Shown here: piece after piece, positions 56,321-64,000 of the stretch | Numbering within the stretch: the stretch's first letter is position 1 | Layout: every line of letters begins with the position of its first letter | Sequence record: OQ025076.1 | Length of the DNA stretch: 64,000 nt | Source of the DNA: Escherichia phage vB_EcoP_YF01 | Strand: one strand, 5' to 3' | Translations under genes and position numbers: made by a program | The notes under the pieces: generated by a model | Database searches by the model: none | Seen by the model: only the letters and a program-made list of their open reading frames with translations | Told to the model about the DNA's origin: nothing

Positions 56321-56519
56321 ATTATTTACCCTTTATCAGAGATTAAAAGTAATATTATTTAAGTAAGTTATATTTAGTAAACTTATTTTCTAAGAAATTT
56401 TCAAAGGGTCTATATACAGAGCATTACCCATAGTCCCAGAATACTACCATCTTTTTCAATAAATTTACTAAGTGGTTGGTTTATAAAGGAATTTAGTTTG
56501 TCAAATCTGGCACTAGTGA

Positions 56520-58565: not shown

Positions 58566-59474
58566 TTATGCCGCCTGACGTGCCGCCATAATTTCAGCCG
58601 CTTTACGCAATACTTCTTCCTCTTCTGCTTTCGCCGCTTGTTCGGTACGGGTAGCAACCGTTGAAGAGATACGACCGCGCAGACTCTCTAACTTCTCCTG
58701 CATAGCTGCAACAGTCTTTTCCATTTCATCAGCGTATGAATCGAGTGATTCTAATTCCTTGCTTGATGCGTTCATCAGATAATCATCCGAGATCGCTACC
58801 GTTGAGGCCGTGACTTTCTTGATGAGTGAATCAAAAGATTTCTTAACCTTTCCTACTTCTTCACTCAGGGCGATAGTGTTATCACTAGTTGCGCCGTTGC
58901 GCTCATCAGCCAGTAATTTGGCTTCAATACGGATTGCATTCAAGCGTTCAACTAAAGCGTAAATATCTTGATTAAAGTCTTCCTTGTTTTTCGCCGGGAT
59001 TTGCAGATGTGCCGCCACATTGTCATTGCAACCCTTGTAAAAGTTAGGGTTATCTACTTCAATTTCACGGCCTAAAGCAAAGTTTTCGAAAGCGTTTGAC
59101 CAGCGAGCGCGGTTTTGTTCCATTTTGGCCTTAATTTGCGCTTCTTTCGCGTCTTCTTTAGCTTTCGCCTCACCTTCCAGATTAATCCACTTTTTACGAC
59201 CATTTGCCGCATCGGTGTTAAACTTGATAGGAGTTAAGAAAGTAATTGCAGTGGCAATCACATCCATATCACGGAAACGTTCAGTTAACAAGAAGTCAAC
59301 CGCCGTCTGCAATACTTCCAGCTTTTTACCGTTACTGCGGAAGTGCTGTAAGTGCCCTAACAGGAAGTTAGAAACATCTTGTTTGATCGCCGCGTTATTG
59401 CTACGAATGTTGTTAGCCAGTGCATTAAAACCAGATTCGTTAACCAGAGTAAAAACTTTAGCCATGATATTCAC
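58566..59474 (-). CDS. Hypothetical coiled-coil protein (first gene downstream of the early promoter array)
   Basis: ORF in track, 302 aa, Ala/Lys/Glu-rich. Confidence 0.5.
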   Translation of the reverse strand: MNIMAKVFTLVNESGFNALANNIRSNNAAIKQDVSNFLLGHLQHFRSNGKKLEVLQTAVDFLLTERFRDMDVIATAITFLTPIKFNTDAANGRKKWINLEGEAKAKEDAKEAQIKAKMEQNRARWSNAFENFALGREIEVDNPNFYKGCNDNVAAHLQIPAKNKEDFNQDIYALVERLNAIRIEAKLLADERNGATSDNTIALSEEVGKVKKSFDSLIKKVTASTVAISDDYLMNASSKELESLDSYADEMEKTVAAMQEKLESLRGRISSTVATRTEQAAKAEEEEVLRKAAEIMAARQAA

Positions 59475-60386
59475 CTTTCAATTGTAAGGGCGCTATTGCC
59501 CCGCTCTCTATGAGCTTGTTTAAGTCACTATTAACTTATCTCTAACCACTCACTTTTTAAGTAGTTATAGGTAAGTGGGGCGGTCTTATCAGGAGTTAAC
59601 CTAGCCGCCCCATTATCCGTGATGTTTCATCTGGTATCTTTAATTAGTCGCTATAAACGAAGCCGACCTGATAGCGATGATCAATCATCACAATAAGGCA
59701 GTGCGTCCGACTCTAATTAGTTACTTTATTGTAACCGTCGGCAATATCGTCTACTTTGCTTTCGCTCTCGCCTATCCTTTTATACTAACTCTCAATCACT
59801 AACCATCGCCCACTACGGGAGGTTATTGTGAAAGAGTCATTAGCCGTCTAATATTCCGACGTTTTATATCTTTCGGCAAGTTTACTACATAAACTGATTA
59901 TGTACGCCATCAATAGTGGCCTCAAATCATTCACATCGTAAACGTTCACACTAAACCTTATTGTTAAATAGCAATTTGCTACTCTTTAACCACTCACCGC
60001 CGCTCGCAATTGAGCTTGTATTCGTCGGACTTGTCTACCCTGATTAACTTCTTTCACTGTAGCGCCTTGTTAGCGATGACCGCCGCTACCCTTAACCGTG
60101 GGCGATTAGCTTAAGTCTTTGCGTACACTCAATGAATCCGTTTATCAGTGGTGACGTTTCCAGCAAGGGATTGTAAGATTGTTTTCTCTGATAGTTTAGA
60201 GAATCTTACACCGTTTTATCTGGTATGTTATCCGATGGTTATTATCATCTAACATATTCAACCGATATAGGAGAATGTTTAAATTATTAAAGAGCGGTAA
60301 ATCTATCAGTGTGCTTTCTCACACTATGCAACTGTTAGCCGTTGTTACGCTTTTCACTGAAGCGGTGATTTGCTTAGTGAGTGCTC

Positions 60387-60415
60387 ATTATGAATCATGT
60401 TGTTTTCGCTGTCAA
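60387..60415 (-). promoter_or_regulatory. Sigma-70 consensus-like early promoter (minus strand)
   Basis: -35 TTGACA (60415..60410), 17-nt spacer, -10 CATAAT (60392..60387). Confidence 0.5.
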
Positions 60416-60877
60416 CCACTTTTTAATCTTTTTTCGTCGTTCCCGCTATTGGGAGGATATATCAATCAGCTTTATTTGATTGAAGACTAAGCGGTGATGC
60501 TTATCTTATGATTCATATTGTTAAAGAGCGGTTACTACATTTACAGCTTAACACATCGTGTTAGCTTGTCAAACTCTTTTTATCATCTTCTTTTAATTCC
60601 TTTCCCTTATCTCGCGTGAATCTATGCGAAAGGGCAAGATGATAAGTCTGATTTGTCTTTTAGGGAATCTAGTGCGCTTTCAAGCATTAATCTTTTGAAA
60701 GTATCGAACAAATAAGGCTTATTGATATTGCTTATTGTCCGCCTGCGTCACGTATGAATCAGGAATCAATTCTACCGATTAACTGAGCGCCTTATAGTAA
60801 TGACGTCGCCGCCACCCGTAAGACAAATCATATTTTTAAAGAGCGGGATGTTTTAAGTCATCGCTGACTGAGTGCTT

Positions 60878-60906
60878 ATTATGAATCAGGCTGTTTTCGG
60901 TGTCAA
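60878..60906 (-). promoter_or_regulatory. Sigma-70 consensus-like early promoter (minus strand)
   Basis: -35 TTGACA (60906..60901), 17-nt spacer, -10 CATAAT (60883..60878). Confidence 0.5.
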
Positions 60907-61084
60907 TACTCTTTTTAAGAATATTTTCACTTTCTAGCCTGATTTTTAAAGAGCGTAGCACTTTCATTGTGCGTCTTACTGTCGGTATTCCTACCGCTCC
61001 CCGTTGAAGCCTTTTACCGTGATGCTAATCACCTATCGAGGAGTTTTTACTACTTGTTGTTACTTACTGCTTACTACGGGATTC

Positions 61085-61112
61085 ATATTACTATACAGGA
61101 AAACCCTGTCAA
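61085..61112 (-). promoter_or_regulatory. Sigma-70 consensus-like early promoter (minus strand)
   Basis: -35 TTGACA (61112..61107), 16-nt spacer, -10 TAATAT; conserved block TAAATTCCTTTA 38 nt upstream. Confidence 0.45.
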
Positions 61113-61394
61113 TACCCTTTTTTCAAATTATTTTATATCTCACTGTTTTATAAAGGAATTTATTTTACTGACAGTAAGACACTACAACGGAATCAGGGGA
61201 TAAAGGAACGGGCGCGCGTGATACATCATAGGAAACGGCCTGTAACGCATCACAACGAGCTAAAAGGGAGTAAGGCATACAATCACCTTATAAAAGAGAA
61301 AAGCGCCATAGCGGCGCTTATAGGAAGGATTAGAGCGTAAGATAGATTATGACCATAGGCATGACTACGGCACAATACAGGAGAAAGATTAAGC

Positions 61395-61760
61395 CTATGG
61401 ATTTACACATTGACCTAAACCGGATTCTATTTCATTCATGGACTCATCAAAGAGTGTAAACGATGAGCGCATCAAGTGATCTACCGTGATTTGCTTACCA
61501 GTGGTTTCATTTACCAGTTGAATAGTTTTATCGTATGATTGTACATGTTCGAAATCATTCACATGTAAAATAATAACTTTAGGTGACTTTTTACCAGTAT
61601 CAAAGTTTTCTACAATATAGGTGCACTGTAAACCTTCCACCGTAGCAGGGGAGAATGTTGCAGCCTTTACACTACCCATAGCCGATAGCAGGACACCCAA
61701 CAGAAGAACAACCAGAAAGAAGCCTACAACCGTTTTAATGACGAATTTAATAAACCACAT
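61395..61760 (-). CDS. Membrane-anchored/secreted protein
   Basis: N-terminal hydrophobic segment VVGFFLVVLLLGVLLSAMGS. Confidence 0.45.
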   Translation of the reverse strand: MWFIKFVIKTVVGFFLVVLLLGVLLSAMGSVKAATFSPATVEGLQCTYIVENFDTGKKSPKVIILHVNDFEHVQSYDKTIQLVNETTGKQITVDHLMRSSFTLFDESMNEIESGLGQCVNP

Positions 61761-61859
61761 AGCAATAAACCTTTAGTTAGAGAATGTAAGAATAAATCAT
61801 ATCAGTGACGAATAGCAGGAAGGTCGCACCAAACAAGCAACGCCAAAAATAATCATGAA

Positions 61860-62132
61860 TCATTGGTTGCTATCCTCGCCAAAAAATGATACGCTGATTT
61901 GTTCCACTTCTTCCAGCGACAACAAAATCCCACGTTGGGCTAAATACTTCCCAATAGTTAGATAATCTTGCACTAAGCAGACAATAGGAAAGCGTATATT
62001 TTGTATCTCACCTTTAGAAAGAAAAGACAAATACCCAGCGTCGACTGATTCATCAAAGGATAACGTAACGCCACCGTAATTATGCGTGTCAATTAACGCA
62101 ATAGTTTCATTTCCCATTAATATCACCCTCAA
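61860..62132 (-). CDS. Hypothetical protein
   Basis: ORF in track. Confidence 0.4.
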   Translation of the reverse strand: MRVILMGNETIALIDTHNYGGVTLSFDESVDAGYLSFLSKGEIQNIRFPIVCLVQDYLTIGKYLAQRGILLSLEEVEQISVSFFGEDSNQ

Positions 62133-62373
62133 TTAATCCATGATTGAGCAGGTTAGCCAGTGATAAATCACCGTCAATATAGATTGATTTGAAGTCTTCA
62201 CGGGTAATTTCAAAATCAGCAAAGGCTAGCCAATCTTTAAGAGGCTGATATTCCATCCTGCAAAAAGTGATAACAGGTAACGTTATCTGACCATCAAGTG
62301 TATTAAACATGATAGATTGCTCGCCAACAAAACAAGAAAAGCCGTTTGATAATTTAACTTCTTTAATAGCCAT
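62107..62373 (-). CDS. Hypothetical protein
   Basis: ORF in track. Confidence 0.4.
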   Translation of the reverse strand: MAIKEVKLSNGFSCFVGEQSIMFNTLDGQITLPVITFCRMEYQPLKDWLAFADFEITREDFKSIYIDGDLSLANLLNHGLIEGDINGK

Positions 62374-62399
62374 TTTTACACTCCCAAAAAATAGATTAT

Positions 62400-63272
62400 T
62401 TACTTACTAGCCTTAATGCAGTTGGCTAAATTAACGTGAACGGTATAAACAGCGTTATCAGCGTTATTGTAAACAGTTGTAGCAATCATCGACTCATTGA
62501 TCGGGCCATAGCTCACTAGGTTGGTTACAGCTTTAACGTCTTCGTAACGTTGTACAGTGCCAAATGTCACCATATCCGCATCGTTATCGGTACGCTTGAG
62601 AACTAGATCACTGTTAGGCTGATTATCTAACGTTTTAGATTGAAAGAGAACGCCATCATTAGTAACGTTGCTAAATTTCACCTTTAGCACGATATTATTG
62701 CCGTCACTATCCGCACCGTTGCAAATCATCCAACCCTTATTGATGGAACTAGAGAAGACACTAGCCGCATCAGTTGCAGGAGCAGGACTAGCGATAGCCT
62801 TATCAGAAAGAGATGTGACCAGTGCACTAACACCGATAGCTGCAACCAGTGCATAACTTGCCAGATTAACAGACTTCATAATCTTACTTGCAACAGTAGG
62901 CTTGATTGGCTGTTTCTTGTTTTTCTTGTTCCATGCTTCAACCATGACAGACAAGCGGGATAATTCAGCTTTCACATCACGGCATGACTCAGGCCAATCT
63001 TTCTGATTCCAGCTATCTAAATTTGCCTGAATGTAACAGTTGATAGCGTCCTGCATATCGGTAAAGCCGTTTTCTTTGAACGTGCTTTCATCTTCACACT
63101 GTAAAGCGTTCGCAGTGGAATTAATGATTAAGCAAGCCAACATGATTGAGTTTTTGAATCCTTTACGTGCGCTTTCGTTTTCCATCCACGCATCAGGACT
63201 ACCAACGGATAAGCCTAAAGAGGAAAGACTTTCGTTTGCTTTGTTCAAGTGGTTAATTGCTACTTTAGACAT
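62400..63272 (-). CDS. Hypothetical protein with internal TM segment
   Basis: ATG 63272 with AAGGAA SD lies downstream of the promoter at 63310-63337 (track start 63341 would precede the transcription start); TM segment LASYALVAAIGVSALVTSL. Confidence 0.45.
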   Translation of the reverse strand: MSKVAINHLNKANESLSSLGLSVGSPDAWMENESARKGFKNSIMLACLIINSTANALQCEDESTFKENGFTDMQDAINCYIQANLDSWNQKDWPESCRDVKAELSRLSVMVEAWNKKNKKQPIKPTVASKIMKSVNLASYALVAAIGVSALVTSLSDKAIASPAPATDAASVFSSSINKGWMICNGADSDGNNIVLKVKFSNVTNDGVLFQSKTLDNQPNSDLVLKRTDNDADMVTFGTVQRYEDVKAVTNLVSYGPINESMIATTVYNNADNAVYTVHVNLANCIKASK

Positions 63273-63309
63273 TTGATATTCCTTATGGTTGATGAAAACT
63301 ACAATCGCA

Positions 63310-63337
63310 ACTATATAATAAAGGAAAAACCTGTCAA
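63310..63337 (-). promoter_or_regulatory. Sigma-70 consensus-like early promoter (minus strand)
   Basis: -35 TTGACA (63337..63332), 16-nt spacer, -10 TATAGT; conserved block TAAATTCCTTTA 38 nt upstream, the same spacing as at 61085-61112. Confidence 0.5.
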
Positions 63338-63480
63338 CCATTTATTTTCTAACTTTTTCATAACTCACTGAATACTAAAGGAATTTAATTTACTAAATTT
63401 TCTATACTCAGGGTATCAGCTTACTAGCTATTGTTACTTTATAACACCAATTCTACGGGCAGCAGACCAACAGACCAGGA

Positions 63481-63908
63481 CACGGGGAGAATACAACCGC
63501 AGGACAGACCACGGGGAAACATAGCAAGATAGTGCGGTAATAATATACCACTTAAATAATTAGTTAACTATTAATAGCATTACTCAAACATCAAAGACGT
63601 TCGCTACGCTCACAAAGGCACGCTGAAAAAGAAAAGAATAAAAGAAATAATAAACATCAAACATAATCTTTCCACTTAATTAATACATACATCATTATTG
63701 CACTCATAATCATCACTATTGAAACTATTTACACTCAAACTATGGGGAGCTGAACGGTAACAATACGGTATTATTAGACCTGTTATGATTGTGCCTTATC
63801 AGAGTATAGCCTTTCTCTCACTCTCTAAAGGGGTACTAAATAAACGGGTAGCTAATGAATAGGATGGTATACACGGGGAAAGAATAACGGGGAGTAGGCA
63901 CGGGGAAA
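63481..63908. repeat. Dispersed ACGGGGA(R)A direct repeats in terminal ORF-free region
   Basis: CACGGGGAGA 63481, ACGGGGAAAC 63511, ACACGGGGAA 63871, AACGGGGAG 63886, CACGGGGAAA 63899. Confidence 0.5.
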
Positions 63909-64000
63909 CGCTGGAACGTGGGAGGAGGTGTAAAGGCATTGCCAATAACCCTTTTTTAAATGAGGACTCCCCCTTTTTAGGAAACGCGCGGCGAGCGGCT

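Follow-up and report, generated by a model that had tools for sequence, protein, structure and literature searches.

The right end of the Escherichia phage vB_EcoP_YF01 genome: a direct terminal repeat, two conserved iteron clusters and an early promoter cassette

We analyzed the terminal region (63310–64000) of a 64,000-nucleotide stretch of DNA from Escherichia phage vB_EcoP_YF01 (YF01; sequence record OQ025076.1), referred to below as the window. This region is almost certainly the right physical end of a genome of the Kuravirus (phiEco32-like) group, comprising the genome end itself, a direct terminal repeat (DTR) and an early promoter. The 193-bp DTR (63808–64000) is preceded by a 466-bp non-coding leader (63342–63807), at the inner edge of which lies the promoter. 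Short repeats of the family AYGGGKA, all on one strand, form one cluster in the leader and another within the DTR; these repeats, termed iterons here, may be recognition sites for the cutting and packaging of concatemeric DNA. For the explanation as a whole, i.e. genome-end identity, promoter cassette and packaging role of the iterons taken together, we estimate a probability of about 0.5.

A megablast search with 62300–64000 returned 97 phage records, all of them from phiEco32-like (Kuravirus group) coliphages and Shigella phages, with the best full-length matches, to Kuravirus phages, at 85–94% identity. Window base 64000 aligned to the final base of phiEco32 (77554) and of SU10 (77327), both linear records, and 63808–64000 is homologous to the mapped phiEco32 DTR with identical boundaries, at a length within the 192–193 bp by which we defined membership in this class of repeats. 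The DTR ends of phiEco32 have been established by restriction mapping, primer walking and subcloning, those of SU10 from a read drop-off that indicates blunt ends, and those of YF01 from whole-genome nanopore reads (PMC4281155; PMC9965538). In relatives that were assembled across the junction, unique left-end DNA starts right after ...GCGGCT, so that the last base of the window is also the last base of the genome at its physical right end. A preliminary description of the window, made from its sequence alone, had suggested a genome end or terminal repeat, and this suggestion is borne out by the base-for-base alignment, which ends on the last base of the DTR. The right terminus known from phiEco32, SU10 and YF01 is homologous to the window base for base and shares with it the length and boundaries of the DTR, the conserved region at 130–170, the CCCTTTTTTA repeats, the promoter and the order of genes; it differs in that its non-coding part is only 85–93% identical to the window. 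Among the phages of the collection searched, none matched the 659-bp non-coding query at ≥95% identity. Both DTR and promoter have been described before in close relatives, and the window is another example at the above level of identity. For curators, the true ends of Kuravirus assemblies can now be located.

Conservation within the DTR is high at positions ~130–170, where 63940–63979 show 0.90–0.97 identity among 11 phages, in agreement with a conserved region reported at about 130–170 of the Kuravirus DTR (PMC9965538). This part contains a direct repeat of CCCTTTTTTA and CCCCTTTTTA around GAGGACTCCCCC, and the CCCTTTTTTA direct repeat has already been reported for SU10 (PMC4281155). Deeply invariant, GAGGACTCCCCC is the most deeply conserved element of the DTR, and the GGACTCCCC core is invariant even where the small-terminase candidate discussed below is only 62–83% identical to phiEco32 gp6.

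The terminal region had also been described as non-coding and AT-rich. Indeed, between the start codon at 63272 and position 64000 there are only open reading frames (ORFs) of 32–48 codons, and in an alignment of 11 relatives none of them has a conserved frame, start or length. We therefore reject these small ORFs as genes; the coding sequences annotated here in YW01, 1-6bf and E20-1 look spurious and should be removed from the annotations. The term AT-rich is true of the leader only, since GC content is 0.339 in the unique leader and 0.492 in the last 193 bp (the DTR), as compared to 0.420 in the whole window. In the center of the leader, at 44% A, three blocks (Table 1) show footprint conservation of 0.90–0.92, and an A-rich leader block is also found in SU7, E20-1 and KBNP1711. 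This A-rich stretch is probably bent. A permissive Rfam search of 59300–64000 gave no family at E≤1, and the gp36-type middle/late promoter motif (tAATGTAtA) is absent from the terminal region.

The last 520 bp of the window contain the heptamer ACGGGGA five times, always on the plus strand (Table 1), and there is only one more copy in the rest of the 64 kb; by chance, ~0.02 copies would be expected per 555 bp (P(≥5) ~1e-10). The extended form ACGGGGA(R)A, which had been ascribed to all five copies, fits four of them, the fourth copy reading ACGGGGAGT. The wider AYGGGKA family has seven copies in the last 560 bp, again all on the plus strand, corresponding to 12.5 per kb as compared to 0.2 per kb elsewhere on this strand.

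We compared the homologous terminal region in 15 relatives from three genera. Both clusters were found in all 15, at the same places and on the same strand, with two to five copies each; cluster 1 comprises two to four copies at the homologous place, spaced by about 28–30 nt. Absence of the repeats from related phages, which the preliminary description had named as grounds for abandoning its interpretation, was thus not observed in any of the Kuravirus-group relatives examined. Moreover, the two clusters change in concert. In Bas87, Bas88, TH42, SU7 and E20-1, ATGGGTA takes the place of ACGGGGA in the later copies of either cluster, with three to five ATGGGTA copies at the place of cluster 2; the two clades agree in the first copy, which is ACGGGTAG in each cluster. 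In EP335 and KBNP1711 (Nieuwekanaalvirus), the iteron has the variant form CACGGGG, and distant relatives, with small-terminase candidates 62–83% identical to gp6, have GGGTAGG-type repeats just upstream of an invariant AATGAGGACTCCCCC. Parallel change of two clusters that lie ~400 bp apart is hard to explain other than by one trans-acting factor that reads both, and the sequence comparison therefore points to a putative DNA-binding factor shared by the two clusters.

A hairpin in single-stranded DTR DNA, formed by ACGGGGAGT (63887) and ACTCCCC (63966), was considered and rejected, because ACTCCCCC does not vary, yet its partner is exchanged in the ATGGGTA clade with no compensatory change. 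Separately, TTACGGGGATGA is conserved inside the first left-end gene (phiEco32 gene 1; locus L002, 323–329) in all ACGGGGA-type phages, with ShigP1, 1-6bf, PGN6866, NJ01, XT32 and SGF2 having it +128 to +170 past the DTR, and is missing from the ATGGGTA-type phages. It could represent a further iteron or simply coding conservation.

The early promoter, P128, is a minus-strand σ70 promoter whose hexamers match 11 of 12 consensus positions, confirming the TTGACA/TATAGT promoter that had been described at this place; transcription would start at about 63303. The core is conserved in 12 relatives, its −35/−10 spacing falls within 16–18 nt, and it lies upstream of the first early gene, homologous to a published SU10 promoter listed as "upstream of CDS125" (S2 table, PMC4281155). 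Upstream of the core follows an A-rich stretch with a mean identity of 0.89 among 10 aligned relatives, and based on the position and content of its A-tracts (−36 to −57) we infer a UP-element-like part. Farther upstream, a distal block constitutes the most conserved 20-nt bin upstream of the core (0.95). It contains the 12-mer TAAAGGAATTTA, of which the window has three exact copies (56484, 61151 and 63376) and seven matches with at most one mismatch, as compared to 0.9 expected; none of 100 shuffles reached seven.

Two of the exact copies belong to promoters, and in both the block lies exactly 38 nt upstream of the −35 hexamer, as previously noted. The similarity of these promoters extends well beyond the block: located at 63337 and 61112 on the minus strand, they can be aligned without a gap over ~85 nt and represent two copies of one cassette, which consists of the core TTGACAGG.TTTTCCT, the A-tract and the distal block AGTAAA(T/A)TAAATTCCTTT at about −73 to −95. 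The distal block is invariant in both cassette copies, across three genera and in all 12 cassette-carrying phages, and its spacing to the −35 hexamer is identical in 16 of 17 cassette copies. The sole exception, SU7 (locus L015, 2969–3029), has an insertion of exactly 11 bp, i.e. one helical turn. Such a phase-preserving insertion, together with the otherwise fixed spacing, fits an element that faces one side of the helix, and the distal block may thus act on one helix face, as the binding site of a protein or through a curvature that wraps the DNA around RNA polymerase.

The block had initially been interpreted as a shared UP element or activator site. It is real, conserved and placed at a fixed distance; however, at about −73 to −84 the 12-mer lies upstream of the −40 to −60 zone that a canonical UP element would occupy, and what the promoters share is the entire ~85-bp cassette. 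Inspection by eye, without a scoring matrix, revealed no convincing match to the Fis (G-N13-C), IHF (WATCAANNNNTTR) or CRP consensus in the block or the leader, which weighs against our interpretation of the block. The third exact copy of the 12-mer, conserved in six relatives, does neighbor a TTGACA, as had been pointed out, but lies directly downstream of it and not 38 nt upstream, so that it does not share the arrangement. Neither the distal block nor the AYGGGKA clusters and their concerted switch are mentioned in the literature on the group that we covered, the primary phiEco32 papers (Savalia 2008; Pavlova 2012) lying outside this coverage.

We suggest that the cassette, at a distance of about 700 bp from the entering end, would serve as an early promoter of very high strength. 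As a compact promoter for the host polymerase, it is possibly useful in engineering. It resembles rrnB P1-type promoters in its near-consensus core, the A-tract at the position of the UP element and a further conserved upstream element, and the sister copy, cassette B, is also followed by an rrn-type boxA. It differs from them in that the distal block shows no Fis consensus by eye and is centered near −84, not −71, and in that P128 has no boxA. Cassette B, situated just downstream of an intrinsic terminator, is present in the window, phiEco32, SU10, EP335, Bas87 and E20-1 and absent from YW01, ShigP1, 1-6bf, PGN6866, NJ01, XT32, Bas88 and TH42; the SU10 promoter table does not list it (S2, PMC4281155). 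Together with ~230 bp around it (60969–61201), it shows a mosaic of presence and absence across the clades (loci L003, L005–L009, L012 and L013), which suggests that it moves by recombination. In addition, a divergent promoter-like site on the plus strand (63292–63319; ATGAAA, 16 nt, TATAAT; 10 of 12 positions) overlaps P128 and points to the genome end; its −10 hexamer is weakened to TATATT in several relatives.

The organization of this terminus is reminiscent of phage T7, the model for DTR packaging. Its 160-bp terminal repeat contains three copies of ACCTAAAG, arrays of the same motif with 13-nt spacing are found in the adjoining unique DNA, and the E. coli promoters A1–A3 lie 498–750 bp from the end. 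Likewise, the window has a short one-strand motif both inside the repeat and in the adjacent unique DNA, partly at 13-nt spacing, and an inward host-polymerase promoter at a similar distance (~700 bp for P128, 500–750 bp for the strong T7 promoters). T7 and the Kuraviruses are both phages with a DTR and presumably package from concatemers (PMC9965538). In contrast, motif and proteins are unrelated, and the arrays lie on both sides of the repeat in T7, whereas the clusters in the window are found inside the repeat and on one side only; T7 also relies on an RNA polymerase of its own (phiOL, phiOR), which is missing from Kuraviruses (PMC4281155). By analogy, we regard the end of the window as a T7-style terminus with a different motif. 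The position of P128 would fit a mode in which this end enters first, followed by transcription-assisted DNA entry.

Repeat-built terminase recognition sites are also found in other phages, e.g. cosB of lambda, which consists of R1–R3 and an IHF site, and pacL/pacR of SPP1. We suggest that the AYGGGKA copies are binding sites of one phage-specific DNA-binding protein, the likeliest reader being the small terminase (the homologue of phiEco32 gp6). A replicating concatemer would contain a single DTR between genomes, and the terminase would have to cut at both DTR boundaries. In such a concatemer, the two clusters would flank the left DTR boundary (63807/63808), with cluster 1 at 290–360 bp before and cluster 2 at 36–98 bp after it and the conserved A-rich stretch between cluster 1 and the boundary; repeated motifs are thus placed beside the cleavage site, as in terminase recognition sites of the pac/cos type. 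Assembled at this site, the iteron-bound protein could guide the large terminase to the DTR boundaries for cutting, whereupon packaging would start, in parallel to the roles of pacB in T3/T7 and cosB in lambda. As candidate sites, the clusters would have in common with lambda cosB and SPP1 pacL/pacR that several short repeats for the small terminase, separated by bendable A/T-rich DNA, are placed next to the cleavage site or on both sides of it; lambda and SPP1 differ in using cohesive ends or headful packaging, as opposed to 193-bp direct repeats. We rate a function of the iterons in concatemer cutting and packaging as the best explanation because the clusters flank the DTR boundary, the layout is like that of T7 and the evidence from gp6, although mixed, is in part favorable; nevertheless, its chances appear to be even at best.

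The gp6 gene (phiEco32, locus L002, 1697–2170) lies directly upstream of the large terminase gene, which makes its product the small-terminase candidate by position. The protein has a basic GNKFGRPKGSR motif, DUF5681 matches 11 of 28 homologues, and an AlphaFold model (mean pLDDT 67) shows a confident three-helix core. Profile similarity of the small-terminase candidate to the small terminase of PaP3 has been noted by the authors of the YF01 study (PMC9965538). Between the two iteron clades, gp6 is 92% identical, and the few differences fall into the N-terminal 40 residues and the acidic tail. When the comparison of gp6 with the iterons was extended by 13 IMG/VR loci and five Logan contigs, residue 36 was N in all eight G-type phages (ACGGGGA or CACGGGG iterons) and T or S in 10 of 11 others (GGGTA-type iterons). 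Residue 33, unlike residue 36, does not track the iteron motif. As it reflects one evolutionary switch, this correlation is a lead and not proof.

Several observations speak against a role of gp6 and the iterons in packaging. In a Foldseek search with the gp6 model, the PaP3 small terminase ranked second to fourth with weak scores (E about 2), leaving the assignment of gp6 as a small terminase weak, and a profile search of the PDB with gp6 gave no match. The eleventh phage that is not G-type (locus L036) combines T36 with mixed motifs, and shared ancestry, i.e. a single event, explains the correlation between gp6 and the iterons equally well. In addition, cluster 1 is far from the DTR boundary for a packaging site, and GAGGACTCCCCC may be the true or core terminase site, with the iterons being accessory or having another role. 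To our knowledge, the short-repeat arrays of T7 have no proven function either. An elaborated scheme seems to us unlikely, in which the AYGGGKA clusters are the packaging signal of the phiEco32 group, whose members cut 193-bp direct repeats without a phage RNA polymerase, and in which this signal is read by a nine-fold ring of the small terminase that a T36N exchange has retargeted from GGGTA to GGGGA; in this scheme, the specificities of protein and DNA would form a pair matched by nature. The iteron clusters offer a concrete, mutable candidate for the cis-acting signal of terminal-repeat cutting and duplication, and the two natural motif variants with a co-varying gp6 residue provide a ready specificity-swap system.

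Lambda ori and plasmid iteron origins are, in general, also built from direct repeats that adjoin an A/T-rich stretch. The two clusters might constitute a replication origin together with the A-rich stretch between them, where a phage or host initiator would bind the repeats and melt 63520–63740. The window has at least three direct repeats, all on the same strand, beside a 220-bp potential unwinding region of GC 0.29 that contains conserved blocks, and in this respect it is like the iteron-type origins of lambda and theta plasmids. In these, however, the units usually measure 17–22 bp, whereas those in the window are much shorter (7–9 bp) and irregularly spaced (13–29 nt). Furthermore, no initiator-like gene is found nearby, the neighboring genes having no recognized family in Pfam or PHROGs, and no conserved DnaA box (TTATCCACA-like) was detected in the window by sequence inspection without a scoring matrix. 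Cluster 2, being inside the DTR, would be duplicated at both genome ends. T7-like DTR phages start replication at internal, transcription-activated origins. The Kuravirus group is thought to share the replication strategy of these phages (PMC9965538), and taken together we find an origin improbable.

No more probable than an origin is a regulatory function, in which the iterons would be upstream sites for inward early promoters at both ends or would bind a protein at the entering or free DNA end. Cluster 1 lies about 110–180 bp upstream of P128, and the left-end copy of cluster 2 precedes the putative gene 1 promoter by ~100–160 bp; in SU10, a putative σ70 promoter directly after the left DTR has been listed (S2 table, PMC4281155). 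The distance of P128 from the end, comparable to that of T7 A1–A3, would likewise suit such a function. Because all iterons are on the plus strand, however, their orientation is opposite relative to the two promoters, and cassette B lacks upstream iterons, yet has the same core and block. Moreover, gp79, the only known early regulator of the group, binds RNA polymerase rather than DNA. An even smaller chance is left for repeats devoid of function, arising by local slippage or duplication in fast-evolving non-coding DNA, with the promoter block as a relic of cassette duplication. The leader does evolve faster than coding DNA (85% identity to phiEco32, as compared to 91% for a 1.7-kb stretch that includes coding sequence), the iteron copy number varies among phages, and the window has an 8-bp local duplication (CAGACCAA/CAGACCAG). 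Yet two clusters of mere relics ~400 bp apart would not undergo the same change, nor would they stay one-stranded and in place across three genera, and the distal block is the best conserved upstream part of the cassette, its sole change in length being one helical turn.

Table 1. Features in and near the right genome end (window coordinates)
Feature	Position	Strand	Remarks
Right DTR, 193 bp	63808..64000	+	End-to-end alignment with phiEco32 1–193 and 77362–77554
Direct repeat CCCTTTTTTA / CCCCTTTTTA around GAGGACTCCCCC (63962–63973)	63949..63979	+	Repeat family D10
Iteron cluster 1, unique leader	63445..63517	+	ACGGGCA 63445 (degenerate), ACGGGGA 63482, ACGGGGA 63511
Iteron cluster 2, inside DTR	63844..63906	+	ACGGGTA 63844, ACGGGGA 63873, 63887, 63900; spacing 29, 14, 13 nt
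Solitary ATGGGGA	63742..63748	+	Present in YW01, NJ01; absent from several other relatives
A-rich low-GC central leader	63520..63740	.	GC 0.290; blocks 63540–63559, 63620–63647 (ACGCTGAAAAAGAAAAGAATAAAAGAAA), 63680–63699
Early σ70 promoter P128	63310..63337	-	TTGACA 63337–63332, 16-nt spacer, TATAGT 63315–63310
A-rich stretch GAAAAAGTTAGAAAATAAATGG, about −36 to −57 of P128	63338..63359	-	Read from sequence
Distal conserved block AATTTAGTAAATTAAATTCCTTTA, about −73 to −95	63376..63399	-	Best conserved upstream bin
Cassette B, second promoter copy	61085..61162	-	TTGACA 61112–61107, 16 nt, TAATAT 61090–61085; block 61151–61162
Third exact 12-mer block copy	56484..56495	-	Directly downstream of minus-strand TTGACA
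First early gene (phiEco32 gp128 / SU10 CDS125 homologue)	62400..63272	-	ATG 63272..63270; annotated homologues 873 nt
Intrinsic terminator (AAGCGCCGCTATGGCGCTT + T-run)	61301..61319	-	Ends short P128 operon; counterpart annotated in SU10

The first early gene, preceded by an AAGGAA ribosome-binding site 8 nt upstream of its ATG, matches PHROG 36409, which has no assigned function, over its full length and gave no match in Pfam. Its product has 290 residues here and in phiEco32 and about 163 residues in 1-6bf, PGN6866, NJ01 and XT32 (loci L006–L009), and the N- and C-terminal halves match separate PHROGs; it appears to be a modular, fast-changing protein. For the neighboring genes, no function emerged from Pfam or PHROGs. 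RefSeq or PHROG labels such as "terminase" (121 residues), "polymerase" (88 residues) and "ABC transporter" (231 residues), attached to small early genes at 61395–61760 and 62107–62373 of the window and at 945–1640 of phiEco32 (locus L002), have no Pfam support. We rejected "terminase" for gp125 and "polymerase" for gp127 as labels without domain support, and all three look like mis-annotations propagated among small early proteins.

Near the terminal region, an ORF-free spacer of 1.9 kb (59475–61400) contains four consensus σ70 promoters on the minus strand. On the same strand, it has four exact copies of CGCTCTTTAA (60955–60946, 60845–60836, 60530–60521 and 60296–60287), each 43–158 nt downstream of a minus-strand TTGACA −35 hexamer; only one further exact copy exists in the rest of the 64 kb. 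One copy reads CCGCTCTTTAACAAT, and some relatives have CGCTCTTTAACAATTTATC, corresponding to the boxA sequence of rrnB, CACTGCTCTTTAACAATTTATCAG (PMC2176067); the extended CGCTCTTTAA copies match the rrnB boxA antitermination sequence GCTCTTTAACAAT. Three to five copies of the motif are found in each of the 15 phages compared (counting the window), and 8 of the 11 distant relatives examined have it as well. In the literature, we found no mention of boxA or antitermination for the phiEco32-like group; the 7-11 paper states that the antitermination strategy "remains to be defined".

The last part of this spacer on the minus strand (59475–60300, ~826 nt), which gave no Rfam match and has no minus-strand ORF of more than 43 codons, folds into 238 pairs in 37 helices in an alignment of nine phages, with 98.2% of cells paired. 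Compensatory changes support 56 of the pairs, as compared to 21.4 ± 3.0 in shuffles (none of 500 reaching the observed number) and only 3–7 in slid controls. In helix 1, the last boxA pairs with the 3′ end of the RNA, resembling the stem formed by rrn leader and spacer. Based on these covariation data, 59475–60300 probably encodes a large structured phage RNA. The entire spacer looks like an rRNA-operon-like unit, in which tandem strong promoters and putative boxA antitermination would serve to make this RNA, and the boxA sites and the structured RNA may matter more than the findings at the genome end.

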